DNA of 64,000 nt, taken from a virus. This document shows positions 1 to 15,306 of the stretch, one piece after another. The stretch is taken from the IMG/VR virus record IMGVR_UViG_3300017991_000003, positions 129,019-193,018 of that record. One strand, given 5' to 3'. The position numbers were made by a program, and so were the translations under genes. A model generated the notes under the pieces. It made no database searches. It was not told where the DNA came from and worked only from the letters and a program-made list of their open reading frames with translations. Position 1 is the first letter of the stretch, and each line of letters begins with the position of its first letter.

Positions 1-512
1 TCGGGGTTGGCCGGCCGTGCCGGCGGGACCTTCCAGCCCAAGTTGGTGAAGGGTAGCAGCCTGTCGGCCACCTCCCAGTTCCAGATGCGGGCGTACCGGT
101 CAGACGTCCACGAACGCAGCGTCAGGACGTCCTCCCCGTCCTGGTGGAAGAGGAGCTGCTTGACGGGTTCGTCGTCGACGTCCTGGGCTTGGAGGTTGTA
201 GTTGAGGTTCTGCGCGGCCATGGAAGTCGGCAGCCGGCGCATGTAGTCGGCAGGAACCCGCATGGATCGGCACAACTGCCCAAAGGCGTAGTGCGTCATC
301 ATCGCGGGCTGCCCGTTGGCGCCGACTAGGCGTAGGTCACGCTGGCCTTCGTCGCCCACCTCCCGCACACGCAGGACGCTGGGACGAGCAGCTGATTCGA
401 TAGCACGCTCGGCGTGCTCGTAGGCGGCGACGCGCGCTTCTTGAATGGTCCAGAAGCGCTCATCGTCAGGGCGGGTGAGCCATTGGCTCGCCGCGGTCAT
501 GATCTCGGTCAT
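1..512 (-). CDS. hypothetical protein, runs off the left edge of the window (C-terminus not in window)
   Basis: Reverse-complement translation from ATG at 510-512 gives an open frame to position 1 (MTEIMTAASQWLTRPDDERFW...HYAFGQLCRSMRVPADYMRRLP...). GC3-rich codons. Faint resemblance to DUF932-type mobile-element proteins, unverified. Confidence 0.5.
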   Translation of the reverse strand, partial: MTEIMTAASQWLTRPDDERFWTIQEARVAAYEHAERAIESAARPSVLRVREVGDEGQRDLRLVGANGQPAMMTHYAFGQLCRSMRVPADYMRRLPTSMAAQNLNYNLQAQDVDDEPVKQLLFHQDGEDVLTLRSWTSDRYARIWNWEVADRLLPFTNLGWKVPPARPANP

Positions 513-524
513 ATTGTCCGTGGG

Positions 525-1055
525 TTAGATATCACAAGGACCCCAGTACAGCCGCTTGCGACGACGTGTTGAGAGGCCTGGGGGCGGTCGCAGTGTGGGG
601 TCTTGCTGTAGCGCGTCGTACATTAGGTCTTGTACCTGCTCGCCTAGCTTGATTTCTGTGACCCCGTTCCTGGAGCAGAAGAAACCAGAAGCGCCCTGCT
701 CGTAGGTTTTCAGGACTGCGGTGTAGCGCACCGCGATGAAGGTCACGACATCCGGAAGATCAAAAGTCTTCAGGAAGTCGTGGATGAGTTGAGCGGCAAA
801 CTGAGCTACGCCGTGTTGATCACCGTCGATACGTAGCCAGACATGTTGTGGGAGTGGCCTCTTGTCTTGATCGAGCATGGTAGGCTCAATAGTGATGATC
901 AGGTCTTGCTGCGGCGTGCCCGCTCTTGGAGTCGCGCTGACGGAGTGCCTTTGATCTGTGCCGGGCCGCCATTGAGCGATCTGTTGCTGCCACCACTGAA
1001 CGTGCGCTGGCGCTGGGGCGGGTACGGAGGTGCAGAGCTGTGTGTACCTATTCAT
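525..1055 (-). CDS. hypothetical protein (176 aa)
   Basis: Complete ORF in the track; stop/start overlap with the upstream gene at 1048-1055; same strand as neighbours. Confidence 0.5.
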   Translation of the reverse strand: MNRYTQLCTSVPAPAPAHVQWWQQQIAQWRPGTDQRHSVSATPRAGTPQQDLIITIEPTMLDQDKRPLPQHVWLRIDGDQHGVAQFAAQLIHDFLKTFDLPDVVTFIAVRYTAVLKTYEQGASGFFCSRNGVTEIKLGEQVQDLMYDALQQDPTLRPPPGLSTRRRKRLYWGPCDI

Positions 1056-1500
1056 TGACCTGCTGCTGCTGTTGCCGGGCCTGCTCGCGTTGATTCAGGA
1101 TGTACCGAACCCCGGCATCGCCTAGCTCGTGGATGCTCTTGAACTCGACCCCTTCTCTGCTGATGAGGGCGACGGACGCTACCTGCTCATTGAGTGCCGG
1201 CTTAGAGCACCATCCCACGACGATCACGTACCTGACGTCGTTGCGGTTGAAGTACTCTAGAAACTCGCTGACCTTGTTGGCGGCGGGCTCTAGCTCCGAG
1301 CCCTGGTCGTCACAGTAGAACCACACCTGTTGCGTCTCGATCTCGAAGTCGAACCGCCACTCGTCATCGATGTCGTAGTCCACCGCGTCGGCGTGCTCGG
1401 CGTGCTCAGCCTGCTGTGCCTTTACGTCGTACCACCAGTCGAGCTCCTCTTGATCGGTTACGGGGATCTCGAAGGAGAACTGGGAATAGTACTCAGCCAT
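1048..1500 (-). CDS. hypothetical acidic protein (150 aa)
   Basis: Complete ORF; Asp/Glu-rich; overlaps neighbours by 8 nt on both sides, consistent with translational coupling. Confidence 0.5.
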   Translation of the reverse strand: MAEYYSQFSFEIPVTDQEELDWWYDVKAQQAEHAEHADAVDYDIDDEWRFDFEIETQQVWFYCDDQGSELEPAANKVSEFLEYFNRNDVRYVIVVGWCSKPALNEQVASVALISREGVEFKSIHELGDAGVRYILNQREQARQQQQQVNE

Positions 1501-1777
1501 CAGCCGGCGCCTCCTCGGGCTTGTTCTTCTCGAGGAAGTCCTCGACGTACTCGTTGATGATGGTCATGGCCGACGCGGTGTCACCGGTGTCCTTGATGAG
1601 ATCGCTTGCCTTGAAGAGCACGTTGATCGGGCCCATGGCGTCGATCTTGTCGCGCGCCTCCATGAGCTCGCAGATCCAATCCACGATCTGGTCGTGGCGT
1701 TGGCGGACGATGGTGGTGCACCCGAGGATCTCGGAGAGGCGCTTCTCGACTTCGGCTTTGTGCTTGCTGTTGGTCAT
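1493..1777 (-). CDS. hypothetical protein (94 aa)
   Basis: Complete ORF; overlaps downstream gene start by 8 nt. Confidence 0.5.
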   Translation of the reverse strand: MTNSKHKAEVEKRLSEILGCTTIVRQRHDQIVDWICELMEARDKIDAMGPINVLFKASDLIKDTGDTASAMTIINEYVEDFLEKNKPEEAPADG

Positions 1778-1779
1778 GA

Positions 1780-1941
1780 CTAATCGGCCTCGGTGACGTC
1801 GACGGCCATGTGTACGGTGAGGGTGGAGGGGTCGTCTCCGCCGAGAATCTCTCGGATGGCCGCTTGCTGGTTCTCGGTCGGGACGAGCGTGACAGCGTCG
1901 TCGGTGTTGTTGAGGATGACGATGGAGTAGATGATTTCCAT
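1780..1941 (-). CDS. small hypothetical protein (53 aa)
   Basis: Internal ATG (MEIIYSIVILNNTDD...) of track ORF 1780..2412, whose N-terminal 157 aa are Arg/Pro-rich read-through of the upstream gene in another frame. Fills the gap between 1777 and 1944. Confidence 0.3.
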   Translation of the reverse strand: MEIIYSIVILNNTDDAVTLVPTENQQAAIREILGGDDPSTLTVHMAVDVTEAD

Positions 1942-1943
1942 GA

Positions 1944-2474
1944 CTACATCTGGATCTTGACGGCGGCGATGAGCCCGGTGAGGACCGGGTCGCCCAGCTG
2001 GGCGGCGTACGTCTCGAGAGCCTCGAGGAGGGACGGCAGCGCGTCCGCGCTCTGGCCGTTGGTAGCGGGAGCGGCCTTGGCCGGCTTGTCGAAGTCGAGC
2101 TGCCCCTGCTTGGCGCCGGCGTAGCGCAGCGGGTCCGCGATGCGGCCGGCGTCCTCGGGCGAGTTGCCCTCGGCCAGGGCCCGCAAGTACGGCCACGCGA
2201 GCCTGTTGCGGTTGCGGTTGCGGTCGATCAGCGTCTGGCCAAGCTCGGTCAGCTTGACGTTGTGGAAGCGCGAGTACTCGATTGCCCCCGTCTTGCGGAT
2301 CTGATCCCGACGCGAGCCGGCGCTGCTCAGTCGGCGGAGCGGGTCGTCGGGGATGGAGAACTGCATGGCGTGGTTGTCCGGCCAGCTTCCGGTCATCTCC
2401 TTGTGGTGCCACATGAAGAGCAGGGCGGTCAGCAGGTTCTGGGTCACGGGCTTGGGCTTGTCTTGAGTGGTCAT
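1944..2474 (-). CDS. hypothetical protein (176 aa)
   Basis: Complete ORF; non-repetitive composition; 4-nt overlap with upstream gene. Confidence 0.5.
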   Translation of the reverse strand: MTTQDKPKPVTQNLLTALLFMWHHKEMTGSWPDNHAMQFSIPDDPLRRLSSAGSRRDQIRKTGAIEYSRFHNVKLTELGQTLIDRNRNRNRLAWPYLRALAEGNSPEDAGRIADPLRYAGAKQGQLDFDKPAKAAPATNGQSADALPSLLEALETYAAQLGDPVLTGLIAAVKIQM

Positions 2475-2809
2475 AGGTGGTCGGGGTTCGGGACGGTGTT
2501 GGTGAGGAGGATGTGCATCCAGGTACGTAGGGACTGCCAGCAGGGGTCGATGTGCTTCCCTTGCTGTCTATCCCACGTCGCCAGGGCGTGGAGCGTGTTC
2601 ATCAGATTCATGGGAGGGCCCGGCAGGTACTCATCATCTTCGAGATGCTTGGGGCGCGCCCCCTCGACTAGGGCGTCGTAGCCCTTCTCGGTCACGAAGG
2701 TGATTTCTTGGAGGGCTACTCCCTCCCAGGTCTCGCCTCCGAAGTCGACCTGGACCGGGATGATCGGCGTACCCGGCTCGAGGTTTTGAAAGGTGAGGCT
2801 CATACCCAC
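2471..2809 (-). CDS. hypothetical protein (112 aa)
   Basis: Complete ORF; coupled by overlaps to both neighbours. Confidence 0.5.
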   Translation of the reverse strand: MGMSLTFQNLEPGTPIIPVQVDFGGETWEGVALQEITFVTEKGYDALVEGARPKHLEDDEYLPGPPMNLMNTLHALATWDRQQGKHIDPCWQSLRTWMHILLTNTVPNPDHL

Positions 2810-3339
2810 TTCTCCTCGATGAGCTTACGGAGGGCCTTCAGGCACATCCGCTGCCGACCGGCGGTCATACGCATCTTCGTGAATCGGTGACTATCGATCA
2901 ACCGATCAACAAGGATCAGGGCGAGGCCCTTGTTCTCGTCGCCCGCTTGAACAGGGATCGACATCTTCTTGGGCTTCTGCGCCTTCTTACGCCCTTTCTT
3001 GAGGGCCTTCACCGCAGCGGGCTCCGAGGCGTAGCGCATGGCGTGCTTGATGACCGGCCACTCGTCCGGGTGAGCTCCGACTTGCTGAGCCAGGCGTTTA
3101 CCAAGCTCGGTCAGCTCGCCACGGTCCCGGCCCACCGTACGCATCAGGCCCATGTTCTTGAGCTCGGCCTTGTAGGTTCCGACGGTCGACGCCTTGAGCA
3201 GCGTCTTACCAGTCCCGCGTGGGAACCGGCGTGTGATCTGAACGCAAGGCCATCGCTTGACCTGCTGCTGGTAGTGGTAGTAGAAGGCTAGCAGGTCCTG
3301 CTGCCGCTTGCTCAGCTCTCGGATTGTTTCGACAAGCAT
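2800..3339 (-). CDS. hypothetical basic protein, possible DNA-binding regulator
   Basis: Complete ORF. N-terminal LSKRQQDLLAFYY resembles the sigma-70 region-4 / LuxR-type HTH pattern; Lys/Arg-rich segment KKGRKKAQKPKK. First gene of the leftward operon. Confidence 0.45.
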   Translation of the reverse strand: MLVETIRELSKRQQDLLAFYYHYQQQVKRWPCVQITRRFPRGTGKTLLKASTVGTYKAELKNMGLMRTVGRDRGELTELGKRLAQQVGAHPDEWPVIKHAMRYASEPAAVKALKKGRKKAQKPKKMSIPVQAGDENKGLALILVDRLIDSHRFTKMRMTAGRQRMCLKALRKLIEEKWV

Positions 3340-3985
3340 GGGTAGGTGGTGGGGTAGAGGTGATCGACATGAGACTTATGCCACAGTCCCTGGTCTAAAA
3401 AGAGAGCCCAACCCGAGGGGGTTGAGCTCTCTGGAAGTGCCCGGGCCCGCCCCTTTCATCGCAGTCCAACGAGTGGGACAAGGGGGATGCCGTAAGGGCC
3501 CGGGCTTGTAGGTGCGGAGCCGTGCCAGGATCACGGCCCCGCGGTGCTGTGGAAGTAGCTTGGCCCCCCAAGGAGGTGGGATGAGCCGCCGTAGCTACGA
3601 TGAGGCTCGCAGTCGGGCATGGTGCTACCCGGCCAACAGCGTGGCGATACGCCGAGACCCGGATCGCCGCCGGATAAGGTGGCCCCCGTCGTGACGTGCT
3701 CAGCTCACGCTCGAGGGGTTGGAAGACCTGCCATCTAGGATCAGTGGGATCCCCATCCCTTTGCACTCCTCGGAGAGTGTGCCGCTCCTGCGGCTGATGT
3801 GATGGCAGGTGGAAGACACCCACAGGTAGCAAGAACCGGCCTGGATGACCTCTTCGTTGCCCTAGGACCGGGGTCAGAGCCTTCCGGGCGCGCCTGTGGG
3901 TGATTGGGAAAGCCGAGCACGTCATCAACGCCGCTTGTGCGTCTGCTTGGTTGGTGGAGACGTGTGACGCTGCTCGGCTTTTGTA

Positions 3986-4072
3986 TGGTGCAGGAAGGGG
4001 GACTCGAACCCCCACGCCCGGGTGGGCACGTGGACCTAAACCACGGGCGTCTACCGATTCCGCCACTCCTGC
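3986..4072 (-). tRNA. tRNA-Leu (anticodon TAG), CCA encoded
   Basis: Reverse complement reads GCAGGAGTGGCGGAATCGGTAGACGCCCGTGGTTTAGGTCCACGTGCCCACCCGGGCGTGGGGGTTCGAGTCCCCCTTCCTGCACCA. 7-bp acceptor stem with one G-U pair, anticodon loop TTTAGGT, long variable arm, T-loop GGGGGTTCGAGTCCCCC. Confidence 0.85.
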
Positions 4073-4146
4073 ATGTAAAGGCATCGATGACCCGTGGGAG
4101 AGTTTCCCCACTCTGTGTTGAGCCCACAGATCATCGATGTGATTGA

Positions 4147-4232
4147 TGGTGCGGGAGGAGGGACTCGAACCCTCACGCCCGAAGGCAGTGGATTTTGAAT
4201 CCACCGTGTCTACCGATTCCAACCACCCCCGC
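4147..4232 (-). tRNA. tRNA-Leu (anticodon CAA), CCA encoded
   Basis: Reverse complement reads GCGGGGGTGGTTGGAATCGGTAGACACGGTGGATTCAAAATCCACTGCCTTCGGGCGTGAGGGTTCGAGTCCCTCCTCCCGCACCA. Anticodon loop TTCAAAA, long variable arm, canonical T-loop. Confidence 0.85.
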
Positions 4233-4446
4233 AGAGGGAGTGCCCCGCCGGCCGGAGCCGACGGGGCGAGTGCCTGTCTTTCCAGACTGTCCGCCCCGTT
4301 CGTATCATGCGCTAGGGGCTCTCGACAGTTCACTACGCCGCCATGCGGACGTCGGTGTTGGCATTTGAAAGCCAGAAGGTACAGACGCCACCGGGCAACT
4401 ATTCTCTGCTCGTAACTATACCCGCGAGCACGTCGGGTTGAAAGGT

Positions 4447-4475
4447 GGGCTGCCGAGGACGCGCCTCGACAGCCC
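4447..4475 (-). terminator. candidate terminator hairpin downstream of the leftward lipoprotein operon
   Basis: Nested inverted repeat GGGCTG-C-CGAGG-acgcg-CCTCG-A-CAGCCC about 12 nt past the stop of gene 4487..5107; no clean U-tract. Confidence 0.3.
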
Positions 4476-4486
4476 GTGGGGGATCA

Positions 4487-5107
4487 TCAGAAGTCGGGAC
4501 GCAGCGTGTCTGCCGCGATCAACGTCAACTCCGGAGCGGACGGAGCTCCGGTCACGACAGCCTGGGGATCCATCTGCGCCACGGAGTGCAGCTCGTGCGT
4601 CTCCATGAGTCTAAGTAGCGCAAAGAATCCGTAGGCGCGCAGCTCGTCCTCTTCTGAGTCGGAGCGCGGCGCGTGCCTGATGAGGGCCCCCGGGACGAGG
4701 TCTGCGTCGGACAGCACCACCCAGTGATCTGTCCAGACAATCGGCTCCAGTTGAGGAACCAGCTGCGAAGCCACCAGGTCGGCTAGCCCTTCACTCAGCG
4801 GGAAGGGACGCTGAGGAGCGCACAGGTGCGTAAGCTCATGTGCGATCACGAAGCGCTGCCGGTACGGCGGCTGATCAAGCCAGTTCGGATGGAGCACGAG
4901 GTAGACCTCGTCCGCGGCATGGGCCACCAGAGCAAGCCTGTCGATCTCACTCGACACGCACACCTGGGGGACCACACCTCGGTCATGCCCGATCATCTGC
5001 ACCACCTGTGGACGCAGTTCATCGAGCAGACCCTCAGCACGCTCGACGGCTGGGTGAGCGCTGGCGCAGGCAGCCAGCGGCAGGCAGGAGATGATCAAGG
5101 ACTTCAC
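4487..5107 (-). CDS. putative lipoprotein with HExxH zinc-metallopeptidase motif
   Basis: GTG start at 5107 (GTGA overlap with upstream stop) gives VKSLIISCLPLAAC with a lipobox-like LAAC; HELTH motif in FVIAHELTHLC. The longer track ORF 4487..5257 has an Arg-rich N-terminus that looks spurious. Confidence 0.55.
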   Translation of the reverse strand: MKSLIISCLPLAACASAHPAVERAEGLLDELRPQVVQMIGHDRGVVPQVCVSSEIDRLALVAHAADEVYLVLHPNWLDQPPYRQRFVIAHELTHLCAPQRPFPLSEGLADLVASQLVPQLEPIVWTDHWVVLSDADLVPGALIRHAPRSDSEEDELRAYGFFALLRLMETHELHSVAQMDPQAVVTGAPSAPELTLIAADTLRPDF

Positions 5108-6006
5108 GGGATCGGAACCCCCTGCTTCTCGATGGTCAGCGGGGTCACGAACCGCTCGCCCTGCGCGTACTGCATCAGGTCGAAGCGGATGCTCTCGAGC
5201 AGTCCCTCGCTGCCGAGGGGTAGGAGGCCGGCGTCGATGACGACCTCGCTGCCCCACAGCGCGGAGCCGGCCCGGGTCTTGGACCAGGCCAGGGCGTGCT
5301 GGCTGCCGTCTTGGTAGCCGAGGCTACCGCTGGCGACCATGTCGGAGCTGTCGTTCAGCGCCCGGATCAGGAGCTTGCCCTGCCCGTGGTCGACGTAGGC
5401 GGTGACGGTGTAGGCCCAGAGAACGTCGTCGATCAGCTGGTTGATGGCCCAGTCCTCGCCGCCTGTGAGGTACCAGGCCTGCACGATGGCGTGGGCCTCG
5501 ACCTCGCTGGCGGCGGTCACCAGGAACTCACCGTAGGCGTCCATGTCGTCCTGGTGGTCGTAGGCGTCCACGGACGTCAAGGAGACCAGGAACTGCTGGA
5601 GCTCGTGGGGCTTGCTGAGATCGATGATCACCTGGTTGCCGCCGAGGGGACCGGACGTGGGTCGGCCGACGAGCTCGAGCTGCTGGGTCGCGTCGGCCAA
5701 GGTGCCTGAGAAGGTGGTGACCACGGAGCCCTCCGGAAGGAGGACCGCCGTACCGGGGGCGTACACCCCGGCGTAGCGGGCGCCGGACTTGGTGATGACC
5801 TCGACCCGGAGGTTGGTCGGGATGTCGGCCGGCACGTCACCTTGGAGGGTGCCGTCACCCTTCTTCTCCAGGCTGGCTTCCCAGCCCGAGAGCTGGACGG
5901 TGATGCCGTCACCCTCTTCGAGGTCGAGGACTTCCTCAGTCGCCGTACAGGCGACGAAGCTGAACATCAGCAGGATGAGGAGGATGAACGTGTGTTGGAT
6001 GCGCAT
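5104..6006 (-). CDS. putative secreted lipoprotein (301 aa)
   Basis: Internal ATG at 6006 gives MRIQHTFILLILLMFSFVACTATEE, a signal-peptide-like hydrophobic stretch ending in a lipobox-like VAC. The upstream 35 aa of the track ORF are not signal-like. Confidence 0.55.
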   Translation of the reverse strand: MRIQHTFILLILLMFSFVACTATEEVLDLEEGDGITVQLSGWEASLEKKGDGTLQGDVPADIPTNLRVEVITKSGARYAGVYAPGTAVLLPEGSVVTTFSGTLADATQQLELVGRPTSGPLGGNQVIIDLSKPHELQQFLVSLTSVDAYDHQDDMDAYGEFLVTAASEVEAHAIVQAWYLTGGEDWAINQLIDDVLWAYTVTAYVDHGQGKLLIRALNDSSDMVASGSLGYQDGSQHALAWSKTRAGSALWGSEVVIDAGLLPLGSEGLLESIRFDLMQYAQGERFVTPLTIEKQGVPIP

Positions 6007-6091
6007 GGCGTCTCCTGTTGGGTTGGGTGGGAACAGTGGAGGCTCGAAGCCTCGGGGTATCAGTAGACTCGTGACACAAACCCGATAAGGT

Positions 6092-6532
6092 TTACAGCGA
6101 ATCCAGGGCATCTAGGGCGTCTGTGAGGCCCTCAGCAGCCTCTTGAGCAGCGTCCGCCTTGGCGCTCTTCTTCCGCTTCTTCCCCTTCTTCTTGTGATGC
6201 AGGGCGGCCAGGCGAGCCCCCTGCTCCCGCTGAGCGTCCGTCACGGACTCCTCGCATAGGGTCTTGTACTCCGCCTCGGTGGGGATGACGCCCTCGGGTC
6301 GCGTCTTGGTGTCCGCGTAGGGGCGGTGGGCCCAGAAGAAGCAGACGTGGTCCGGGCAGTTCTTGATGGCGTCCCGGTAGCCCTCGTTGCCGACACAGGC
6401 TCGGCAGTTGAGGTCGACAGCGGATCGGAGGCTGCTACCGTGATCAGCTTTGACGGCGACGGTGGGGCGGGCGAGGCGGACGTCGTTCTCGACGCAATCG
6501 ATGATGTCAGGCTTGGTGGTCATGTGTGGCAC
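6092..6532 (-). CDS. hypothetical Cys-rich basic protein (146 aa)
   Basis: Complete ORF; six Cys including CRAC and CPDHVC; Lys-rich HHKKKGKKRKKSAK near the C-terminus suggests nucleic-acid binding. Divergent from the rightward operon starting at 6608. Confidence 0.5.
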   Translation of the reverse strand: MPHMTTKPDIIDCVENDVRLARPTVAVKADHGSSLRSAVDLNCRACVGNEGYRDAIKNCPDHVCFFWAHRPYADTKTRPEGVIPTEAEYKTLCEESVTDAQREQGARLAALHHKKKGKKRKKSAKADAAQEAAEGLTDALDALDSL

Positions 6533-6607
6533 TGGCTAGGAGTGTCAGGGTGGGAAAACTGTCTCCATATCTTGACAGAGGGGCGCCGGCTAGGCACGAT
6601 CCCTGGC
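6533..6607. promoter_or_regulatory. divergent intergenic region with inverted repeat CTGTC-N10-GACAG and TTGACA hexamer
   Basis: 75-bp gap between divergent gene starts 6532 (-) and 6608 (+); contains ctgtctccatatcttgacag. Promoter elements not confidently assignable. Confidence 0.3.
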
Positions 6608-7123
6608 ATGGAAACGACAACGACAGAGGCCCGCCCTGAGCTACAGCTTCGGCCGTTGGCCGGGCGGGTGATGATTCGAGTGGACGAGGCCCCCACGATG
6701 AGCGCAGGTACGCGAGGCCGTCAGGTCTATCTACCCGAGAGCGTCCAGAAGGAGGAGAAGGCGAACTACCGGTTCGGTACGGTCGTGGCCCTAGGGGACC
6801 CCGCGCTGCATCCGAAGACCGGCAGGCCGATCCCGTGGGCTGTGCATGTAGGCACCAAGGTCTGCTTCCAGTTCGGGGCTGACCTTACAGGTGAGCGAGA
6901 GCTCCAGTACACAGGAGGCGTGGCCCATGCGGTGTGCTTTGCTGAGGATCTGATTTACGCCATCGAGGATGATTATGAGATTCAGCCGACTCCCGTATGC
7001 CCCAACAGCGTAGGGGTTGCGCTACGCCGCGCTCTGATGAACGACGACTGGCTGACCGAGGAGCAGGTTGACACCCTGAGCCGGCGGCTCGCGTGCACGA
7101 TTGCCGGGGTTGTGCCCGCGTGA
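6608..7123 (+). CDS. GroES-like co-chaperonin (Cpn10 family) with C-terminal extension
   Basis: ATG at 6608; LRPLAGRVMIRVDEAPTMSAG...FGTVVALGDPA...PWAVHVGTKVCF...AEDLIYAIED aligns by eye with GroES (IRPLHDRVIVKR..TKSAGGIVL..GEVLAVGNG..VKVGDIVIF..ESDILAIVE). Confidence 0.6.
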   Translation: METTTTEARPELQLRPLAGRVMIRVDEAPTMSAGTRGRQVYLPESVQKEEKANYRFGTVVALGDPALHPKTGRPIPWAVHVGTKVCFQFGADLTGERELQYTGGVAHAVCFAEDLIYAIEDDYEIQPTPVCPNSVGVALRRALMNDDWLTEEQVDTLSRRLACTIAGVVPA

Positions 7124-7758
7124 GAATCGGCCGCACTTCCGATCTAGCGCCCTGGCCGCTCTTCATCGGCTTCTACACCCCGGAGTACGAGGAAGAGGCC
7201 GGGGAGCTTCGTAAGACCCTGGACGCGTTCGGGCTGCCACACGAGATCGAACCCGTCGAGTCCACGGGTAGCTGGTGGCTCAACACGCAGATCAAGGCTC
7301 AGATCATTTTGCTCAAGCTACGGGATCACCTGGGTCGACCGCTGGTCTACCTGGACTGCGATGCCCGAGTCAGGCAGGCTCCTACCTTGTTCCGCTCCCT
7401 GCATCACCAGTGCGACTTCGCGGCTCACTTCCGACCGGATCGACGATTCGAATGCGGTCGAGAGCTTTTGAGCGGGACGCTGTACTTCAGCGGCTCGCCG
7501 GCTTGCCAGGGCCTGGTACAGGCTTGGATCGATGAGAATGAGCGCCAGGCTGCGATCAAGAGTAGCAACAAGCTCCGCCTCATGGATCAGAGAACCTTGC
7601 AGACGGTCCTGGCTAAGGAGATCGAGGAGTACGGTCTTATGTTCACCGAGCTCCCTGCTACCTACGTTCAGATCTTCGACATCATGCGCGACGCCGGCGA
7701 CCCGGTGATCGAGCATCTCCAGGCCAGCCGCCGATTGAGGAACAAGGTTGGTCACTAG
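7120..7758 (+). CDS. putative glycosyltransferase (nucleotide-diphospho-sugar transferase-like, GT-A fold)
   Basis: GTG at 7120 overlaps the upstream TGA (alternative GTG at 7093). LVYLDCDARV and overall pattern resemble DxD-type sugar transferases; weak. Confidence 0.4.
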   Translation: MRIGRTSDLAPWPLFIGFYTPEYEEEAGELRKTLDAFGLPHEIEPVESTGSWWLNTQIKAQIILLKLRDHLGRPLVYLDCDARVRQAPTLFRSLHHQCDFAAHFRPDRRFECGRELLSGTLYFSGSPACQGLVQAWIDENERQAAIKSSNKLRLMDQRTLQTVLAKEIEEYGLMFTELPATYVQIFDIMRDAGDPVIEHLQASRRLRNKVGH

Positions 7759-7770
7759 ACTCATGACTCA

Positions 7771-8529
7771 ATGAAGCGACTGATCTACCAGGTCTGCGTT
7801 GGCCCGCCTGACCCGCTCTACGACAAGTGCACGCGCACTGTTGCGGCCTACTGCAAGCGCCTCGGCATCGCGTACATCAAGCAGACCGAGCCGGTCCTGA
7901 AGATCCGCCCGAACCCCGCTACGAGCGGGAGAAGCCAGAACGCTGTTGAACGACTAGGGTACCTGCCGATCTTCGAGAAGGAGAACGCACTCGCCCACCT
8001 TGGTGAGTTCGATCAGGTGGCCATTATCGACTCCGATATCTGGATCAGGGAGGAGGCACCCAACATCTTCGAGGAGCTCGAGGAGGGTGTTGACTTCATG
8101 GGGGTGGTCGAGCGAACCGCACCCATCACGCCGCAGTATGATCGGAAGCTCAAGAGCTACGCGCGCGGCCAGTACGGTCGTCCGGACTTCCCCTTCATGA
8201 ACATGGGGCTCATGCTCATGAACAAGAGCCTGCGCCGCTTCTGCCCCGAGCCTCCTCGGGAGTTTCTGGCGCGTCCGGAGTTCCAGGCCTTCGTGGATGG
8301 GCGGGGGGCCTACAAGTGGAGCACGGACCAGACCCTGCTCAACACCTGGTTGACCAGCGATCCCGACATGGTCGTGAAGCCTCTCGACTGGCGGTGGAAC
8401 GCCCTGTACGGGGCGCTGGTGCCCGGGTCGATAGAACAGGCCCACTTCGTTCACTTCTTCCTCAAGAACCACCTGGATAGCCAGGATCCCGACAAGCTCC
8501 TTCAGACACAAGGCCGCAAACGCGTTTAG
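7771..8529 (+). CDS. glycosyltransferase family 8-like protein
   Basis: AIIDSDIWI (DxD), FMNMGLMLMN, STDQTLLNTWL and HFVHFFLK match the order of conserved GT8 motifs. Confidence 0.55.
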   Translation: MKRLIYQVCVGPPDPLYDKCTRTVAAYCKRLGIAYIKQTEPVLKIRPNPATSGRSQNAVERLGYLPIFEKENALAHLGEFDQVAIIDSDIWIREEAPNIFEELEEGVDFMGVVERTAPITPQYDRKLKSYARGQYGRPDFPFMNMGLMLMNKSLRRFCPEPPREFLARPEFQAFVDGRGAYKWSTDQTLLNTWLTSDPDMVVKPLDWRWNALYGALVPGSIEQAHFVHFFLKNHLDSQDPDKLLQTQGRKRV

Positions 8530-8533
8530 CCCC

Positions 8534-9211
8534 ATGAGCAAAGTACCACCCCTATTCATTCACGTACCGAAGACCGGTGGCATGTCCGTGCACCATGGAC
8601 TAGGCCGCCTGATCCGAGAGACGCTGTCTCGAGACAAGCTGAAGTCTCTGGACTACGCGGCGACGATCGAGCAGCACATGCGCTCCAAGGGTGAGCCTAC
8701 TCCGGGGTACCGTCATGCCCGGTGGCGTGACGTCAAGCCGGGGTGGCGGGATAAGGGCCGCTGTTTCACGGTGCTGCGCAATCCGTGGTCCCGTGTGGTC
8801 AGTCGCTACCGGTTCGGACTCAATACCTGGGCGACGCGTCCCTACAACTACACGAACTTCGAGGAGTTTCTTGCGGAGCATGAGGAGTGGGGCCAAGAGC
8901 CGTACTACTGGCACCGCGCCGTGCGGGGCTGGTACCCTGCGGTGGATCACGTGACGGACGGCCAGGGCAACCTCAAGTGCGATGTTCTGCGTACGGAGCA
9001 CCTGGACGATGACATCTGGGCCTACTTCGGGAAGCGGCTACCTCCGCGCCGACGCAACGTCACGCGCGGCGATGCCGTGGACTACAAGACCTTCTACGAC
9101 GATCGAACCATCCAGCTGGTGGCAGACTGGTATGCCGAGGACATTGAGATGTTCGGCTTTGACTTCGACACGCCGGCGACGAAGAACCTGTGGGAGGGCC
9201 TAGGAGCATGA
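8534..9211 (+). CDS. sulfotransferase (PAPS-dependent, carbohydrate sulfotransferase-like)
   Basis: N-terminal LFIHVPKTGGMSV matches the 5'-phosphosulfate-binding motif (PKTGTT-like); TVLRNPWSRVVSRY matches the 3'-phosphate-binding motif (RDPxxRxxS). Confidence 0.65.
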   Translation: MSKVPPLFIHVPKTGGMSVHHGLGRLIRETLSRDKLKSLDYAATIEQHMRSKGEPTPGYRHARWRDVKPGWRDKGRCFTVLRNPWSRVVSRYRFGLNTWATRPYNYTNFEEFLAEHEEWGQEPYYWHRAVRGWYPAVDHVTDGQGNLKCDVLRTEHLDDDIWAYFGKRLPPRRRNVTRGDAVDYKTFYDDRTIQLVADWYAEDIEMFGFDFDTPATKNLWEGLGA

Positions 9212-9765
9212 TGGTTGGCAAGAACCAGGGCAGTCTCCTGGTTGTGCAGCAGATCCCAGAGAACAGCGTGGGTGCCGAGCTCGGCGTCTGGCGCGGGGAC
9301 ACATCAGCCCGCTTCCTAGCTAGCGGTAAGATCAAGCACTTGCACCTGGTGGATGCTTGGAGTCCCGACCCTTACTACGGCATCGAAGGCTACCGAGAGA
9401 AGTACGCCAAGCTGGTCGGATCGGGTGATCTCGACGCCTTTCGCGCCTACTACGACGCGGTCCTAGCCGGTGTCCGCAGGCGGTTTCAAGGCCAGCCCGT
9501 TACGATCCACCAAACCACTGTGCACGAGTTTCTGACTGAGCCCCCGGAGGATCTCGACTGGGTCTACGTGGACGCGAGTCACGAGTACCTCGACGTCCTT
9601 GATGATCTCGAGCGCTGTGCCCGTCACGTGGATCTGATCTTTGGGGATGACTACGGCAACAAGCCAGGGGTGGTTCGCGCTGTCGACGAGTTTGATCGGA
9701 CGCACCCCGAGTGGCACCTCCAGGTCCTGGGCAAGAACCAGTACCGCCTCGATAGGAAGGTCTGA
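9208..9765 (+). CDS. class I SAM-dependent methyltransferase (O-methyltransferase, Methyltransf_24-like)
   Basis: ATG at 9208 overlaps upstream TGA (ATGA). GAELGVWRGDTS glycine-rich motif, VDAW, DLDWVYVDASHEY and GDDY resemble the TylF/MycF-type fold. Confidence 0.55.
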   Translation: MMVGKNQGSLLVVQQIPENSVGAELGVWRGDTSARFLASGKIKHLHLVDAWSPDPYYGIEGYREKYAKLVGSGDLDAFRAYYDAVLAGVRRRFQGQPVTIHQTTVHEFLTEPPEDLDWVYVDASHEYLDVLDDLERCARHVDLIFGDDYGNKPGVVRAVDEFDRTHPEWHLQVLGKNQYRLDRKV

Positions 9766-10271
9766 TGCACCCATCAAGCAAGGCCAATATGAGGGAGGCC
9801 TGGGCACTCGTTCCCGACCCCCACCGCGTCGGGGACGTCCTTGATGTAGGCGGCGGTCGTGGCGGGGAATACCAGGAAATCTGGAAAGGGTGTGCTAGCT
9901 ACCGAACGGCTGACATTGCAGGTGACTGCGACCTCTTGATGCCTGGTGAGTACGAGATTCCACTTCCGGATGATTCGATCGATGTGGTGATTAGCGGCCA
10001 GACACTGGAGCATGTCCGCAACCCTTTCCGCCTCGTCACCGAGATGCGCCGGGTACTGAAGCCCGGTGGCTACGTGGTGATCATCGCCCCGTCCGCGGGC
10101 CCGGCCCATTTCAAGATCGACTGCTGGCGCTTCGTCCGGGATGCGTTCCGGGCCATCGCCCACGAGTGCGATCTAGAGGTTGTTGCCGATTGGATCTATA
10201 CCGGGGACTCTGGCCGAGGTCCTAACAAGCAGTGGAACGATCACACCTTCGTGGGGAGGAAGCCCGAGTGA
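9765..10271 (+). CDS. class I SAM-dependent methyltransferase (Methyltransf_11-like)
   Basis: VLDVGGGRG (motif I), DVVISGQTLEHV and LKPGGYVVI (motif III-like); 1-nt overlap with upstream stop. Confidence 0.6.
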   Translation: MHPSSKANMREAWALVPDPHRVGDVLDVGGGRGGEYQEIWKGCASYRTADIAGDCDLLMPGEYEIPLPDDSIDVVISGQTLEHVRNPFRLVTEMRRVLKPGGYVVIIAPSAGPAHFKIDCWRFVRDAFRAIAHECDLEVVADWIYTGDSGRGPNKQWNDHTFVGRKPE

Positions 10272-10969
10272 ATGCGTATGCCATCACGCTCTTCGGTAAC
10301 GAGACCAGCACCCAGAGCGTTGACAAGCTCTTTGAGTCCCATGTGGCGCTTGAGCAGCATTTCGATCTGATCCGCTTCCCGGCCATCACTCCTGACCAGA
10401 ACCAGGAGATCATGGCGGAGGAGCGCCTGGTGTGGACCTATCCCTGGGAAAACAACCGGCTGGATGGGATCACTGGCTTGAAGCTGCATCCCTACGCCAC
10501 ACGTGATCGGGGTGCGCGGATCGCCTGCTTCCTATCGCACTACCACCTCTGGAAGCTGGCCTGCGAGACTGGGGAGTGGGTGATGATCCTGGAGGACGAC
10601 ACGGTATTCACCAAGCACCTAGACCTAGACAGCCTGCCTTACCGTGAGTGGAGCGCCGTCGGCATCAACAACCCACTAGGGGCGACGCGTCGAGCGCCTG
10701 TGTTCCACGACAAGGTCGTGGCGCAGCGTCCGACTCCGATCATCGAGACCCCGTGGGTTGATGATGAAGTCAGGACCCCGCAGGGGCTGGCCGGCCACAG
10801 TGCCTACATGATCAGCCCTGAGCTGGCTAAGGACCTGATCCATCGAGCCCGTCATGCGGGTTGCTGGCCTAACGACGCATTGATGTGCAAGCAGCTGTAC
10901 CCTGGGAAGCTCGGGGTCACAACCGAGTTCTACACCCGAGTCCAGCAGACCCCGAGTACTCTGGCATGA
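10268..10969 (+). CDS. glycosyltransferase family 25-like protein
   Basis: GTG at 10268 (GTGA overlap). AYAITLFGNETS, IACFLSHYHLWKLA and VMILEDDTVF match GT25 (LPS/LOS glycosyltransferase) signature order. Confidence 0.55.
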   Translation: MNAYAITLFGNETSTQSVDKLFESHVALEQHFDLIRFPAITPDQNQEIMAEERLVWTYPWENNRLDGITGLKLHPYATRDRGARIACFLSHYHLWKLACETGEWVMILEDDTVFTKHLDLDSLPYREWSAVGINNPLGATRRAPVFHDKVVAQRPTPIIETPWVDDEVRTPQGLAGHSAYMISPELAKDLIHRARHAGCWPNDALMCKQLYPGKLGVTTEFYTRVQQTPSTLA

Positions 10970-11628
10970 AGGCGCGCGTCATCACCCTGATCCACAACAA
11001 GCGATCTGTTCAGGTAGCGAATCGGTGCATTGAGAGCGCTGCAAGGTTCGGCGTTGAGGTTGATATCTTCCCGGCCATCAGGGCGGCGGATAACCCCAAG
11101 GCCCTGATGTTCGAGCGGAAGTTCTCGATGAAGGGGTTTGAGGACAATGAGTACTCGCGTCTTGAGCCGTGCCTGGCTACGTTCCTCTCCCACTCTCGCC
11201 TATGGGAGCTTGCGGTGCTGCTAAAGGAGGCAGTCCTGATCCTCGAGCACGACGCTGTGTTCCAGGCTCCGCTCCCGGAGATGATCGAGGAGCGGGTGAA
11301 GATGCTCTGCAATCTGGGCAAACCGAGCTTCGGCTCCTTCAAGACCCCGAAAGAGGGGCTAGGCCCGTTCGTGTCCAAGCCCGGCGGCTATCTAGGCGGC
11401 GCCCACGCGTACCTGGTCCAGCCTGAGGCCGCTGAGGTGATGTTGGAGAAGGCCAAGACAGAGGCGGAGCCGGCCGATGTGTTCATCCAGAAGAAGCGCT
11501 TCCCCTGGATGACTGAGTACTACCCGTGGCCGGTGATCTGCGATGACTCCTTCTCCACCATCCAGAAGCCCGCAGGTTGCACGGCCAAGCACAACAAGGT
11601 CGAGATCATCGATCAGGATGAATCGTGA
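10966..11628 (+). CDS. glycosyltransferase family 25-like protein (second copy, divergent)
   Basis: ATG at 10966 (ATGA overlap). MKARVITLIHNKRS, ATFLSHSRLWELA and VLILEHDAVF mirror the GT25 pattern of the adjacent gene. Confidence 0.55.
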   Translation: MKARVITLIHNKRSVQVANRCIESAARFGVEVDIFPAIRAADNPKALMFERKFSMKGFEDNEYSRLEPCLATFLSHSRLWELAVLLKEAVLILEHDAVFQAPLPEMIEERVKMLCNLGKPSFGSFKTPKEGLGPFVSKPGGYLGGAHAYLVQPEAAEVMLEKAKTEAEPADVFIQKKRFPWMTEYYPWPVICDDSFSTIQKPAGCTAKHNKVEIIDQDES

Positions 11629-11861
11629 GGCTGCTAAGTCGCGCCTACTGGGCGGAGGTCGTCGAGTGCGACTACTGCCCTAATCCTGAAGAACCGCCCG
11701 CGCTTGTTTGTGGTGTCTGCGGCGATACGGGGAAAGCCCCGCGATGGCGTCGGGCTTGGCGCGATGTCTTCCGGTGTAGTGCTCTGGTGGGCCATCCTGA
11801 TAGGAGCCCTGCTTGTGGGGGCGTTGGCTCAGTAAAAACAACGCGTTGTTTTGTCGGGTAG
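11625..11861 (+). CDS. small Cys-rich protein, possible zinc ribbon
   Basis: GTG start overlapping upstream stop; CDYC...CGVC pair of CxxC motifs; last gene of the rightward operon. Confidence 0.35.
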   Translation: MRLLSRAYWAEVVECDYCPNPEEPPALVCGVCGDTGKAPRWRRAWRDVFRCSALVGHPDRSPACGGVGSVKTTRCFVG

Positions 11862-11884
11862 GTAGCTAAAACAACGTGTTGTTA
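11835..11884. terminator. pair of AT-rich palindromes between convergent operons (candidate bidirectional terminator or operator)
   Basis: Perfect palindrome AAAACAACGCGTTGTTTT (11835-11852) and near-copy AAAACAACGTGTTGTT (11868-11883), conspicuously AT-rich in a GC-rich genome; sit between the 3' ends of the plus operon and the minus gene 11922..12179. Confidence 0.4.
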
Positions 11885-11921
11885 GGCACCCCAGCGCCCG
11901 AGGGCGCCGGGGGCCTGGTTC

Positions 11922-12179
11922 TCAGGGGCGGAGCCGCAGCCCCCGAGAGGTGACCAGCACCTTACGGTGCGGGACCTTGGGGAGCTTCGGCAGGGGCGGG
12001 AGGTCGACGTCGGTGTCGACGACCGCCTCCACCAGGGACTCGCCGTCCGCCCCGCTGATGTGGAGGCGGCGGTGCTCGCTGTTCTCGGTCACGTGGACCG
12101 AGCCCAGCGGGGTTTTGACCTTGGCGATGGTTCGCTCGGGGGCGATCCACGCCAAGATCTCGTCGAAGAACCCCATCAC
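11922..12179 (-). CDS. hypothetical protein (85 aa)
   Basis: Complete ORF, last gene of the leftward operon, coupled to the upstream gene by a 4-nt overlap. Confidence 0.45.
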   Translation of the reverse strand: MMGFFDEILAWIAPERTIAKVKTPLGSVHVTENSEHRRLHISGADGESLVEAVVDTDVDLPPLPKLPKVPHRKVLVTSRGLRLRP

Positions 12180-12358
12180 TTGCAGAGCAGCGGGTTCTTC
12201 CCCCGCTGCTTGATGCGGCGCACCCTCGCGCGGAGGGTGTGCTCGATGGAGAGGGGCTGCCCGCGGAGGCGGGAGGTGACGGCGATGTCTAGGCCGCGCA
12301 TGGGGGAGATCTTCCCCCGGCGGACCTTGAGCATCACCTGGCGACTGAGATTGCTCAT
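12176..12358 (-). CDS. small basic hypothetical protein (60 aa)
   Basis: Complete ORF; Arg/Lys-rich; 4-nt overlaps on both sides. Confidence 0.4.
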   Translation of the reverse strand: MSNLSRQVMLKVRRGKISPMRGLDIAVTSRLRGQPLSIEHTLRARVRRIKQRGKNPLLCK

Positions 12359-12555
12359 GTGGTCAGGTGGTCGGCGAAGGCCCAGGTGACGGCCTCCGCG
12401 AAGTTGGGGGTGAGGGTGGCGTAGCCCGTCTCTACGTGGGAGACGTGGGACTGACTGAACCCGATACGCGCAGCGAACTGCGCTTGGGACAGGCCCAGCC
12501 CCTTCCTGATCCAGCGGACCAGGCGGGGGCTGAGCTCGACGGTGGTGGCGATCAC
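12355..12555 (-). CDS. helix-turn-helix transcriptional regulator (XRE/Cro-CI family)
   Basis: LGLSQAQFAARIGFSQSHVSHVETG is a classic HTH_3 motif; 66 aa. Confidence 0.6.
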   Translation of the reverse strand: MIATTVELSPRLVRWIRKGLGLSQAQFAARIGFSQSHVSHVETGYATLTPNFAEAVTWAFADHLTT

Positions 12556-12839
12556 GACGCCTCCTCCGCGTCCGCCCAGGCTCGGGCGATCTGACGCATG
12601 GGAGCCCTCTGGGAGAGGGGCCGGACGGTCACGAGAGTGATGAGACGCTTGTGGCCGATCGTGATGAGCGGCTGCTCGTAGCCGCCCCGCGAGGCGGCCT
12701 CACGCACCTTCTTTTTGAAGGTGGTGAGCTGCGGGCTGTGAGCAGGCAGGCCGATCAGGGATTGACCTACTTCCTCGAACACCTCGCAGATGACCTCGGG
12801 CATGAGGGGCCGCAGCGGTTCTCGCATGGGGTTCTTCAT
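12552..12839 (-). CDS. hypothetical protein (95 aa)
   Basis: Internal ATG (MKNPMREPLRPLMPEVICEVFEE...) of track ORF 12552..13226; ATGA overlap with the stop of the upstream gene. The upstream 129 aa of the track ORF are Arg/His/Pro-rich read-through. Confidence 0.45.
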   Translation of the reverse strand: MKNPMREPLRPLMPEVICEVFEEVGQSLIGLPAHSPQLTTFKKKVREAASRGGYEQPLITIGHKRLITLVTVRPLSQRAPMRQIARAWADAEEAS

Positions 12840-13180
12840 CGGATCTCGAACCCCAGCTTTTCGGCGAGTTCGACCGTGGCGGTGCGGCTCGTGTGGTGGC
12901 GGGAGAACGCCACCTCGCCGGTGGCGAGGTCCACGTACCAGCGGTTGCCGCCGCCAATGCCGTAGATCGTCACGTGACCGGACTGGCCACGCATACGCAG
13001 GGCGTGGCCCCACGTGTATTGAGAGGACTCGGGGTCCTCGATGGAGTCCATCTGGCTCAGGAGCCAGGCGACCCCGTTTGCGTCGCGGCGCTCCTCGTCG
13101 TAGGTCGACGAGAAGCCCTCGACTTCTGCCATGTCGATGAGCGTCTCGGCGCTCATGATACGACCGGTCAGGGTGGTCAT
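12836..13180 (-). CDS. hypothetical protein (114 aa)
   Basis: Complete ORF, non-repetitive composition; first gene of the leftward operon, directly preceded by the 42-bp repeat. Confidence 0.5.
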   Translation of the reverse strand: MTTLTGRIMSAETLIDMAEVEGFSSTYDEERRDANGVAWLLSQMDSIEDPESSQYTWGHALRMRGQSGHVTIYGIGGGNRWYVDLATGEVAFSRHHTSRTATVELAEKLGFEIR

Positions 13181-13183
13181 GGT

Positions 13184-13225
13184 GTTGGGTGGTGAGGGTG
13201 TCTCCGGGTAGACATCCCCGGATCA
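13184..13225 (-). promoter_or_regulatory. 42-bp conserved upstream element, copy 1 (identical to 14851-14892)
   Basis: GTTGGGTGGTGAGGGTGTCTCCGGGTAGACATCCCCGGATCA, 3 nt upstream of the start codon at 13180. In gene sense it contains hairpin TCCGGG-gatgtcta-CCCGGA and a C-rich tract CACCCTCACCACCCAAC before ATG. Confidence 0.6.
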
Positions 13226-13339
13226 TTAGACTTATGCCCTAACCTCTCCCCCTCCTGGCGCTTTTGGTCCATACTGGGGGCACAACTTGACGCCCTTCGG
13301 GGCCGTCTCCCACGGATAACACAACTCCAGGAGAAGAGC

Positions 13340-14044
13340 ATGCTGCTCAACAACTTCAGCGTCCGCGTGCCTGAGGGACGCGAGCACCACCAGTACGTGG
13401 AGCTCCAGCACGACACCAAGTACAGCCTCGTCCTCGCCAACAAGAACACCGAGGACTGCGACGCCCGGGTAGAGATCGATGGGCAGGCTGTTGGGACCTG
13501 GCGGATCAAGGCCAAGTCCACGGTCCGGCTCGAGAGGCCGGTTGACTCGGAGGGTAGGTTTACCTTCTACAAACAAGGCACCGAGGAGGCGAGCAAGGCT
13601 CAGCTCGAGGCAGTCGGCGAGGACAAGCTCGGCCTGGTCTGCGTGTGGTTCACCCCGGCTAAGCGACAGCAGGTACCGCAGTGGATCAGTACCCCGCAGT
13701 GGGGCAGTCACTACCCGTCGCCTACGCCCCCGCCGATCCCCTTGGATTACCAAGTCGACTGCAACACGATCCAGACGGCTTTCTTCTGCGCGAGCTCTGC
13801 GGATATGCCTTCGATGAGCCAGAAGAGCGTGGGCTCGATCACGCGAGAGGCGCGCCTTATGTCTTCAGGAGGCACGGGCCTCTCGGGTAAGAGCACACAG
13901 CAGTTCGTTGAGGCTCAAGAGCTCGACCTAGACATGGATCGACAGACCTTCATCGCCCTGCGCCTCGTGTGCGTGGAGAAGGAGGAGTCGGACATCCGTC
14001 CTCTGGTGCAGCGAGCCACCCCTGTACCGCCGCCCCTGAAGTGA
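13340..14044 (+). CDS. hypothetical protein (234 aa), stand-alone rightward gene
   Basis: Complete ORF with GGAG 10 nt before ATG; flanked by leftward operons on both sides; Pro-rich segment PSPTPPPIPLDY. Confidence 0.5.
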   Translation: MLLNNFSVRVPEGREHHQYVELQHDTKYSLVLANKNTEDCDARVEIDGQAVGTWRIKAKSTVRLERPVDSEGRFTFYKQGTEEASKAQLEAVGEDKLGLVCVWFTPAKRQQVPQWISTPQWGSHYPSPTPPPIPLDYQVDCNTIQTAFFCASSADMPSMSQKSVGSITREARLMSSGGTGLSGKSTQQFVEAQELDLDMDRQTFIALRLVCVEKEESDIRPLVQRATPVPPPLK

Positions 14045-14058
14045 GGCAAAAAAGAAGG

Positions 14059-14081
14059 CTGGCACTGGCTCCCAGTGTCAG
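14059..14081 (-). repeat. inverted-repeat element copy E (CTGACACTGG-gag-CCAGTGCCA in minus orientation), terminator-like
   Basis: Plus strand reads ctggcactggctcccagtgtcag; on the minus strand it is followed by CCTTCTTTTTT (U-tract). Lies about 16 nt beyond the stop of gene 14097..14465 and shortly after the stop of plus gene 13340..14044. Confidence 0.5.
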
Positions 14082-14096
14082 TCTTCTTCTCGCGGC

Positions 14097-14850: not shown

Positions 14851-14892
14851 GTTGGGTGGTGAGGGTGTCTCCGGGTAGACATCCCCGGATCA
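14851..14892 (-). promoter_or_regulatory. 42-bp conserved upstream element, copy 2
   Basis: Exact 42/42 match to 13184-13225, abutting the ATG at 14850. Similarity continues weakly for about 13 more nt (aaggactcatgac vs ttagacttatgcc). Confidence 0.6.
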
Positions 14893-15032
14893 AAGGACTC
14901 ATGACAGACCCAAGAGATGGGTTTGGCCCGCTAGTCCCTGGCACACATCCCGGCCTAGGCCCTAGACTTAGGACGAACCCTAAGGGCTCTTTCTGGGCCC
15001 CAAGTCCCCTTCTAACCGGATCCTGAGACACC

Positions 15033-15302: not shown

Positions 15303-15306
15303 ACCG

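Follow-up and report, generated by a model that had tools for sequence, protein, structure and literature searches.

A 64,000-nucleotide stretch of virus DNA (IMG/VR record IMGVR_UViG_3300017991_000003, positions 129,019 to 193,018; hereafter the window, with coordinates counted from its first letter) carries two tRNA genes in tandem. We found both to be bacterial-type class II leucine tRNA genes, one with a CAA and one with a UAG anticodon, borne by a large tailed phage. The genes are real, and they are ordinary phage cargo, one more example of the long-known phage-encoded tRNAs. As to their role, we favor, with a confidence only a little better than even, a functional tRNA-Leu pair that serves the phage as accessory cargo and supplements the tRNA pool of the host; the tRNAs probably help to translate the CUA codons that this phage uses unusually often. 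Next to the pair lies a candidate folded RNA, which we regard as the most interesting lead from this locus; a new RNA class would need many more sequences.

ARAGORN called two tRNA genes and no others across the window; both lie on the minus strand, and each scored above the Rfam RF00005 gathering score of 29 bits (Table 1). An earlier note, made from the letters alone, had given the coordinates, isotypes, anticodons and encoded CCA ends of both genes correctly, as judged by ARAGORN and Rfam, and had left the strand unstated. The two CCA ends appear as tgg on the plus strand at 3986-3988 and 4147-4149. In both genes, CCA is preceded by the discriminator A73, the main identity element for leucyl-tRNA synthetase (LeuRS) in bacteria, and the acceptor stem is formed by 7 bp, including one G-U pair. 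The T-arm GGUUCGAGUCC is present in both, and the variable arms GCCCACCCGGGC and GCCUUCGGGC are long and form stem-loops, as class II tRNAs do. Alignment with bacterial tRNA-Leu placed G18G19, A73, the T-loop and the long variable arm in the two phage genes. The anticodon loops are canonical: UUUAGGU in tRNA-Leu(UAG) is the same as in Ruegeria tRNA-Leu(UAG), and UUCAAAA in tRNA-Leu(CAA) is the same as in Pseudomonas tRNA-Leu(CAA). The D-arm of tRNA-Leu(UAG) is regular, with a 3-bp stem plus G13-A22, G18G19 in the loop and class II architecture. The 5' strand of the D-stem of tRNA-Leu(CAA) contains one extra U compared with bacterial tRNA-Leu(CAA). This U sets tRNA-Leu(CAA) apart from bacterial class II tRNA-Leu, with which the pair otherwise shares the D-loop (AAUCGGUAGA), the anticodon loops, the variable arm, the T-loop, A73 and the encoded CCA.

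The two genes are 70% identical to each other and are therefore not the product of a recent duplication of one tRNA gene. When we searched the 72,556 plasmids and chromids of PLSDB by blastn, the best matches reached 86% (Pseudomonas Leu-CAA) and 79% (Euzebya), with mixed phyla; identity to the aligned Pseudomonas tRNA-Leu(CAA) was 84%, and identity to the aligned Ruegeria tRNA-Leu(UAG) was 75%. No near-identical copy of either tRNA was found in the bacterial genomes and plasmids searched, and an exact 37-nt pattern of tRNA-Leu(CAA) had no match in 185,579 species genomes. The pattern of tRNA-Leu(UAG) had no match in IMG/VR, and the two-tRNA tandem pattern, which does match the window, had none in metagenome contigs. 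With best matches of at most 86% identity spread over several phyla, no host could be called from the tRNAs. One apparent Leu(CAA)-Leu tandem, on the Euzebya pacifica plasmid pEDY32-46I (572 kb), was rejected; it is Leu(CAA)-Leu(CAG) within a 32-tRNA array at 345-359 kb, a locus unrelated to the window. The neighbors of that array are a CCA-adding enzyme, NAD-salvage genes, LigA, RuvB, sigma factors and an HNH endonuclease. Positions 1-16006 of the window recur with 100% identity in an independent assembly (JGI 3300018080), so the tRNA genes are not an assembly artifact.

The surrounding DNA is that of a phage. A 695-aa open reading frame (ORF) at 31942-34029 belongs to the baseplate wedge family phrog_6 (E = 1.4e-17), and its homologs are annotated as "phage protein gp47/JayE." An exact copy of its product is recorded for a contig of 174,660 bp, and of the contigs with it, the longest measures 193,018 bp; relatives with 50-80% baseplate identity lie on contigs of 119-191 kb, one of them in IMG/VR. 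A DUF932/phrog_1362 protein is encoded just outside the window, beyond its position 1; the GC content is 63%. The window also holds giant ORFs at 16788-20576 (1262 aa), 34036-44256 (3406 aa), 52127-56359 (1410 aa) and 57743-62281 (1512 aa), and Pfam/PHROG scans of the window ORFs gave almost no further matches. Among 50,697 GenBank phages there was no match in a megablast of 12 kb or a tblastn of the baseplate and 1262-aa proteins. The baseplate homolog, the giant ORFs, the large contigs and the lack of a related GenBank phage identify the window as part of a large (~175-193 kb) genome of an uncultured tailed phage.

tRNA genes are commonly targets of integration, and XRE/CI-like helix-turn-helix genes are present in the region, so we considered whether the pair might mark the attB or attP site of an integrating element. 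We rate this as very improbable. No integrase or recombinase domain was found in Pfam/PHROG scans of the window ORFs or in precomputed Pfam calls for the 10 kb that flank the tRNAs on each side, and the 26-nt 3' ends of the tRNAs have no second copy within the window at up to 3 mismatches, the only hits being the two genes themselves. On both sides the DNA is phage-like and keeps synteny with related phage contigs, and bacterial housekeeping genes are absent. The lack of an integrase and of attachment-site-like tRNA repeats argues that the tRNAs are phage cargo, as the earlier note had proposed from the missing integrase, and the attachment-site reading is largely refuted.

Comparison with related phages bore on the nature of this cargo. 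We retrieved the syntenic regions of three relatives, A (contig L008), B (contig L011) and C, via the DUF932 protein. In all three, the borders of the slot that holds the tRNAs are kept, with the HExxH lipoprotein gene upstream and the hairpin plus promoter-like motif downstream (Table 1). The slot of relative B (a 145-kb contig of 61.5% GC) has a single tRNA-Thr(UGU), which scored 70 bits and encodes CCA. In relative A (57% GC, 78% baseplate identity) no tRNA was found in the slot, even by a permissive Rfam search, and in relative C the ~330 nt of the slot available contain none. Because the content of the slot thus ranges from two tRNA-Leu genes through one tRNA-Thr(UGU) to none in two relatives, the tRNAs are recently exchanged accessory cargo in a variable slot.

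Relative A, the closest of the three, has Acb2/Tad1-hairpin, AbiEi_4 and KwaA-like proteins encoded near its syntenic region (L008 14699-14950 and 17066-17692; L003 7970-8542). The Acb2/Tad1 hairpin is a family of anti-CBASS/anti-Thoeris sponges, and the presence of these genes points to a defense/counter-defense hotspot.

We then asked which codons the pair would serve. Codons were counted in 48 window ORFs (18,816 codons) picked by their coding signature in GC content at third codon positions (GC3), which is 0.80 for this set. Leucine accounts for 9.2% of all codons, distributed per 1000 codons as CTG 36.9, CTC 31.9, CTT 9.5, CTA 8.0, TTG 5.7 and TTA 0.1. CTA makes up 9% of leucine codons and outnumbers every other A-ending codon, despite the high GC3, and the share of A in the CTN box exceeds that in the other four-fold boxes (9.3% versus 7.3%; p = 0.006). 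Counted in the same manner, a Paracoccus denitrificans plasmid (GC3 0.80) uses 0.8 CTA and 9.2 TTG per 1000 codons, and a Euzebya pacifica plasmid (GC3 0.85) uses 1.2 and 7.6, with CTA at 1% of leucine codons in each. The phage thus uses CTA 7-10 times as often as these two arbitrarily chosen GC3-matched replicons.

These counts are consistent with the following scheme. The tRNA-Leu pair would be processed out of a phage transcript, and the processed tRNAs would be charged with leucine by the LeuRS of the host. tRNA-Leu(UAG) would then raise the capacity for reading CUA, a codon that the phage lineage uses ~10 times as often as GC3-matched bacteria, and could also read other CUN codons through wobble at U34. 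In bacterial decoding, a UAG anticodon with a modified U34 is able to read CUA, CUG and CUU. tRNA-Leu(CAA) would read UUG. Because UUA is virtually unused (1 occurrence in 18,816 codons), the UAG and CAA anticodons would together cover every leucine codon that the phage uses.

A parallel case comes from relative B, the phage with tRNA-Thr(UGU). ACA makes up 17% of its threonine codons versus 6% in the window, at similar GC3 (p = 1.7e-9), and the difference in ACA share also held against the syntenic 16 kb (p = 0.02). For threonine, then, the use of an A-ending codon tracks the presence of the matching tRNA. Both the CUA excess and this Thr/ACA case support codon compensation, the classical explanation of phage tRNAs (PMC10264068; PMC11555353).

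The locus in these respects resembles the tRNA regions of T4, T5, large myoviruses and the mycobacteriophages of cluster C1. Complete bacterial-type tRNAs are carried by a virulent-looking large tailed phage, they are clustered in a non-coding stretch, their content differs between close relatives, and at least one anticodon (UAG) fits a codon used far above its level in GC-matched bacteria. It differs from them in having, over the 69 kb covered, only two tRNAs, each of them a leucine tRNA, and in belonging to a phage with no sequence relative in 50,697 GenBank phage records.

Several observations weigh against a pair that supplements the host pool by codon matching. TTG, at 5.7 per 1000, is used less by the phage than by the GC3-matched replicons (7.6-9.2 per 1000). 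The earlier note had pointed to the habit of phages of carrying tRNAs that match codons over-represented in their own late or acquired genes; such a match is supported for CUA (8.0 versus 0.8-1.2 per 1000) and fails for UUG. CTA is more frequent in the small genes at 1-31.9 kb (10-11 per 1000) than in the giant structural ORFs (6.1 per 1000; Fisher p = 0.011), and TTG does not differ between these two sets. As CUA is richer in small, non-structural genes than in giant structural ORFs, which are presumably late and for which a strong demand on translation would be anticipated, the appeal to late genes could not be upheld. The appeal to TTG codons in the gene of a PAS-domain protein (49612-50328) fared no better, with an unremarkable 3 TTG among 23 leucine codons. 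Relatives A, B and C use CTA at 9.9-14.2 per 1000, including the two with no tRNA in the slot region, and high CTA usage is a trait of the lineage. Rarity in the host is judged here from the two arbitrary comparators. The count of tRNAs covers 64 kb plus 4.9 kb of a genome of ~175-193 kb, and the D-stem of tRNA-Leu(CAA) with its extra U is irregular.

We also considered counter-defense, in which the phage tRNAs replace host leucine tRNAs that have been depleted or cleaved by shut-off, anticodon nucleases or other tRNases, and make the phage self-sufficient for the codons of leucine, one of its most heavily used amino acids. This is the main rival reading, and we hold it to be distinctly less probable than a supplement to the host pool. 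Complete coverage of the leucine codons in use, for an amino acid at 9.2% of codons, is what such a role would call for. Moreover, because UUG is not enriched in the phage, compensation leaves tRNA-Leu(CAA) unexplained. The turnover of slot tRNAs among close relatives is as expected of arms-race cargo, and the relatives carry the Acb2/Tad1-hairpin, AbiEi_4 and KwaA domains. There is precedent, as phage tRNAs rescue from defense in the cases of T5 tRNA-Tyr against PtuAB and tRNA-Lys against PrrC (PMC11555353), and a counter-defense role of phage tRNAs has been proposed generally (PMC10264068). However, a comparison with the ordinary tRNA-Leu genes of Ruegeria and Pseudomonas shows identical anticodon loops and thus no sign of an escape mutation. 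In addition, the phage-tRNA literature cited here names no defense tRNase for these leucine isoacceptors; its sole leucine case is tRNA-Leu(tta) as a target of RelE. The contrast between slots provides a natural comparison, since close lineages carry Leu(CAA) plus Leu(UAG), Thr(UGU) or nothing at the same place, and it could separate codon compensation from counter-defense once a host is known.

The variable slot, empty in two relatives, would also be expected if the genes were non-functional or hitch-hiking copies that had been acquired from a host or a different phage and had yet to be lost. The extra D-stem nucleotide in tRNA-Leu(CAA) and the lack of UUG enrichment fit this too, and at least tRNA-Leu(CAA) could qualify. 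We judge such an origin quite unlikely, however. Both genes score well over the Rfam threshold, and their acceptor, anticodon and T arms, A73 and CCA are intact. With 70% mutual identity and 75-86% identity to bacterial tRNAs, the two must have evolved independently for a long time with the cloverleaf preserved, which argues for purifying selection. A functional pair remains our preferred reading, and we next consider what lies 3' of it.

The tRNA strand continues 3' of the pair as a folded non-coding stretch (window 3392-3985, minus strand; L011 5422-6232 in relative B). In the window, the ~590 nt of non-coding sequence 3' of tRNA-Leu(UAG) fold with z = -5.1 on the minus strand versus -3.0 on the plus strand. 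Within it, ~427 nt are homologous to relative B and form a candidate structured RNA (Table 1). A metagenome pipeline had called a 177-aa ORF at 3395-3928; its GC content by codon position is 0.70/0.61/0.63, versus ~0.62/0.45/0.80 in real genes, and the call looks spurious. A 185-aa call after the tRNA-Thr gene in relative B is likewise without a coding signature.

RNAalifold on the pair from the window and L011 gave a structure of 77 base pairs, 23 of them with compensatory changes versus 1-4 when the partners were slid by 1-3 columns, a count made on two independent sequences with the structure derived from the same pair. Three of the compensatory changes fall in one 10-bp helix and five in another. 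The conserved G-U pairs, together with the stronger minus-strand folding, indicate that the RNA is read from the same strand as the tRNAs. For the two modules conserved best, covariance models retrieved no copy from relatives A and C or from other parts of the window. A search against Rfam, GOLLD and ROOL included, yielded no family match at E <= 1 for window 3200-5200 or at E <= 5 for L011 4800-6500, and blastn against phages gave no further homologs. A metagenome motif scan for more copies returned the known relatives only, plus two chance matches at 47% GC, which we discarded.

Phages encode GOLLD and ROOL, "often near tRNA islands," and GOLLD sometimes has tRNAs within it (PMC12286853). 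The candidate at 3392-3818 shares several features with these RNAs, being several hundred nucleotides long, highly folded, non-coding, phage-borne and located beside tRNA genes. It differs in matching no Rfam model and in being represented by two phage lineages, with a structure from two sequences. Its likeness to GOLLD and ROOL is therefore one of setting only and not of family membership.

This setting raises the question of whether the tRNAs are a module of a cassette made of tRNA and structured RNA, with a main role tied to the ~425-nt RNA. The tRNAs might act as RNase P or 3'-end processing signals that release or stabilize the structured RNA, or they might be its cargo or partner, as in proposals made for GOLLD and ROOL. 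The structured RNA is present in both phages with slot tRNAs and absent from the two without them. The RNA directly follows the tRNA on the same strand and precedes the terminator-like hairpin, and the compensatory changes, the conserved G-U pairs and the minus-strand z all favor an RNA on that strand; GOLLD and ROOL also often adjoin phage tRNA islands (PMC12286853). Nonetheless, we find it improbable that the main role of the tRNAs is tied to this RNA in any of these ways. The co-occurrence is just two versus two, the covariation was counted on a structure from the same sequence pair, and neither GOLLD, ROOL nor any other Rfam family was matched. A specific partnership between tRNA and RNA is made less likely by the tRNA isotype, which is not the same in the two phages. 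A bolder idea can be put forward tentatively, and we would expect it to prove wrong more often than right: the candidate at 3392-3818 could represent a new class of large structured RNAs in phages, co-transcribed and travelling with swappable tRNAs as a cassette. For GC-rich environmental phages it would then be a functional analog of GOLLD and ROOL, with the tRNA-Leu pair as one interchangeable module. If confirmed, a tRNA-linked folded RNA would add a new lineage of GC-rich phages to those in which large ornate RNAs are associated, for reasons not yet explained, with tRNA islands.

From the elements of the locus (Table 1) we infer a minus-strand transcription unit that runs from a promoter-like motif through two lipoprotein genes, the two tRNAs and the folded RNA to a terminator-like hairpin, with the tRNAs in its untranslated 3' part. 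The 300-aa lipoprotein had no homolog besides itself in a search of 5.8 billion proteins. Orthologs of the HExxH lipoprotein show 38-39% identity in L008 and L011, and 38-49% across relatives A, B and C. Between the two tRNA genes, the 74-nt spacer folds with a minimum free energy of -34.1 kcal/mol (z = -5.9; none of 200 shuffles as stable), and its hairpin may be a processing or stability element. At the far end, the hairpin and its TTTTTAG are positionally conserved in four related phages, and this terminator-like element likely forms the 3' end of the tRNA-bearing unit.

A recurrent motif, TGTGGCATRAGTCTNATG, has five minus-strand sites in the window at up to 3 mismatches versus 0.17 expected. 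For at least three of the five, a minus-strand gene starts shortly downstream; the motif is conserved in four related phages and probably serves as a phage promoter or operator. Though similar to a sigma-54 -24/-12 element, it misfits that pattern because the GC of the -12 element is missing. The copy at 6061-6078 is a possible promoter for the unit of two lipoproteins, two tRNAs and structured RNA. Motif scans of IMG/VR for the structured RNA or the promoter-like motif gave no matches. A CCCACAG palindrome, considered as a dispersed repeat, was dropped, as it is not enriched (8 sites versus 7.6 expected).

Table 1. Features of the tRNA locus in the window, in 5' to 3' order on the minus strand
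Feature	Position	Strand	Details and basis
Promoter-like motif copy	6061..6078	-	55 nt upstream of ATG at 6006; 3 mismatches, motif search
300-aa predicted lipoprotein, first gene of the inferred unit	5104..6006	-	Lipobox in translation; 34% identity to positional counterpart in relative A (L008)
206-aa predicted lipoprotein, HExxH	4487..5107	-	Lipobox; weak Peptidase_M78/IrrE match, Pfam E = 1.4e-4
Non-coding leader, 254 nt	4233..4486	-	From HExxH gene to first tRNA; no coding-signature ORF; two strong hairpins, fold z = -2.6
tRNA-Leu(CAA)	4147..4232	-	86 nt, CCA encoded; ARAGORN (caa), Rfam RF00005 46.0 bits, alignment with bacterial tRNA-Leu
Inter-tRNA spacer, 74 nt	4073..4146	-	Single ~22-bp hairpin (inverted repeat I2, arms 4082-4098 / 4123-4139)
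tRNA-Leu(UAG)	3986..4072	-	87 nt, CCA encoded; ARAGORN (tag), Rfam RF00005 49.4 bits, alignment with bacterial tRNA-Leu
Linker, variable, non-conserved	3819..3985	-	Directly 3' of tRNA-Leu(UAG); unaligned to relative B (nhmmer)
Candidate structured RNA, ~427 nt	3392..3818	-	Homologous to L011 5812-6232 (421 nt), nhmmer E = 5.6e-7
Terminator-like hairpin	3395..3432	-	Inverted repeat I4, 14-nt arms, one mismatch, then UUUUUAG; ~590 nt past second tRNA
Promoter-like motif TGTGGCATAAGTCTCATG	3368..3385	-	Ahead of next gene, 2800-3339; conserved in four related phages
Sites of motif TGTGGCATRAGTCTNATG	3368-3385, 6061-6078, 7753-7770, 13224-13241, 30770-30787	-	Motif search

Other genes of the window were noted in passing. 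The giant ORFs of 3406, 1410, 1512 and 1262 aa are essentially without Pfam/PHROG matches, and a weak TIG domain occurs in the 3406-aa ORF only. That ORF directly follows the baseplate gene, has a 3435-aa homolog in relatives and presumably encodes a fiber or host-recognition protein. The PAS-domain protein (238 aa, E = 8e-11) is encoded amid large structural ORFs, an unusual setting for a sensor domain.

Another baseplate relative, at 50% identity and the single match among genome contigs, lies on the 189.9-kb contig CAZCPY010000001.1 (51% GC), which was binned in an "uncultured Rhodobacterales" metagenome-assembled genome. The contig is probably phage DNA wrongly binned as bacterial and offers the sole, weak host hint for this phage group. 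Its baseplate identity and GC content make it too distant, and the binning too uncertain, for us to have used it to name a host.

Divergent from the tRNA unit, on the plus strand at 7093-11628, is a cluster of modification enzymes that is kept in relatives; it comprises a sulfotransferase-like protein, two S-adenosylmethionine (SAM) methyltransferases and two GT25 glycosyltransferases. Finally, we observed a perfect 43-nt inverted repeat (13183-13225 / 14850-14892) around a ~1.6-kb segment with short ORFs on both strands.

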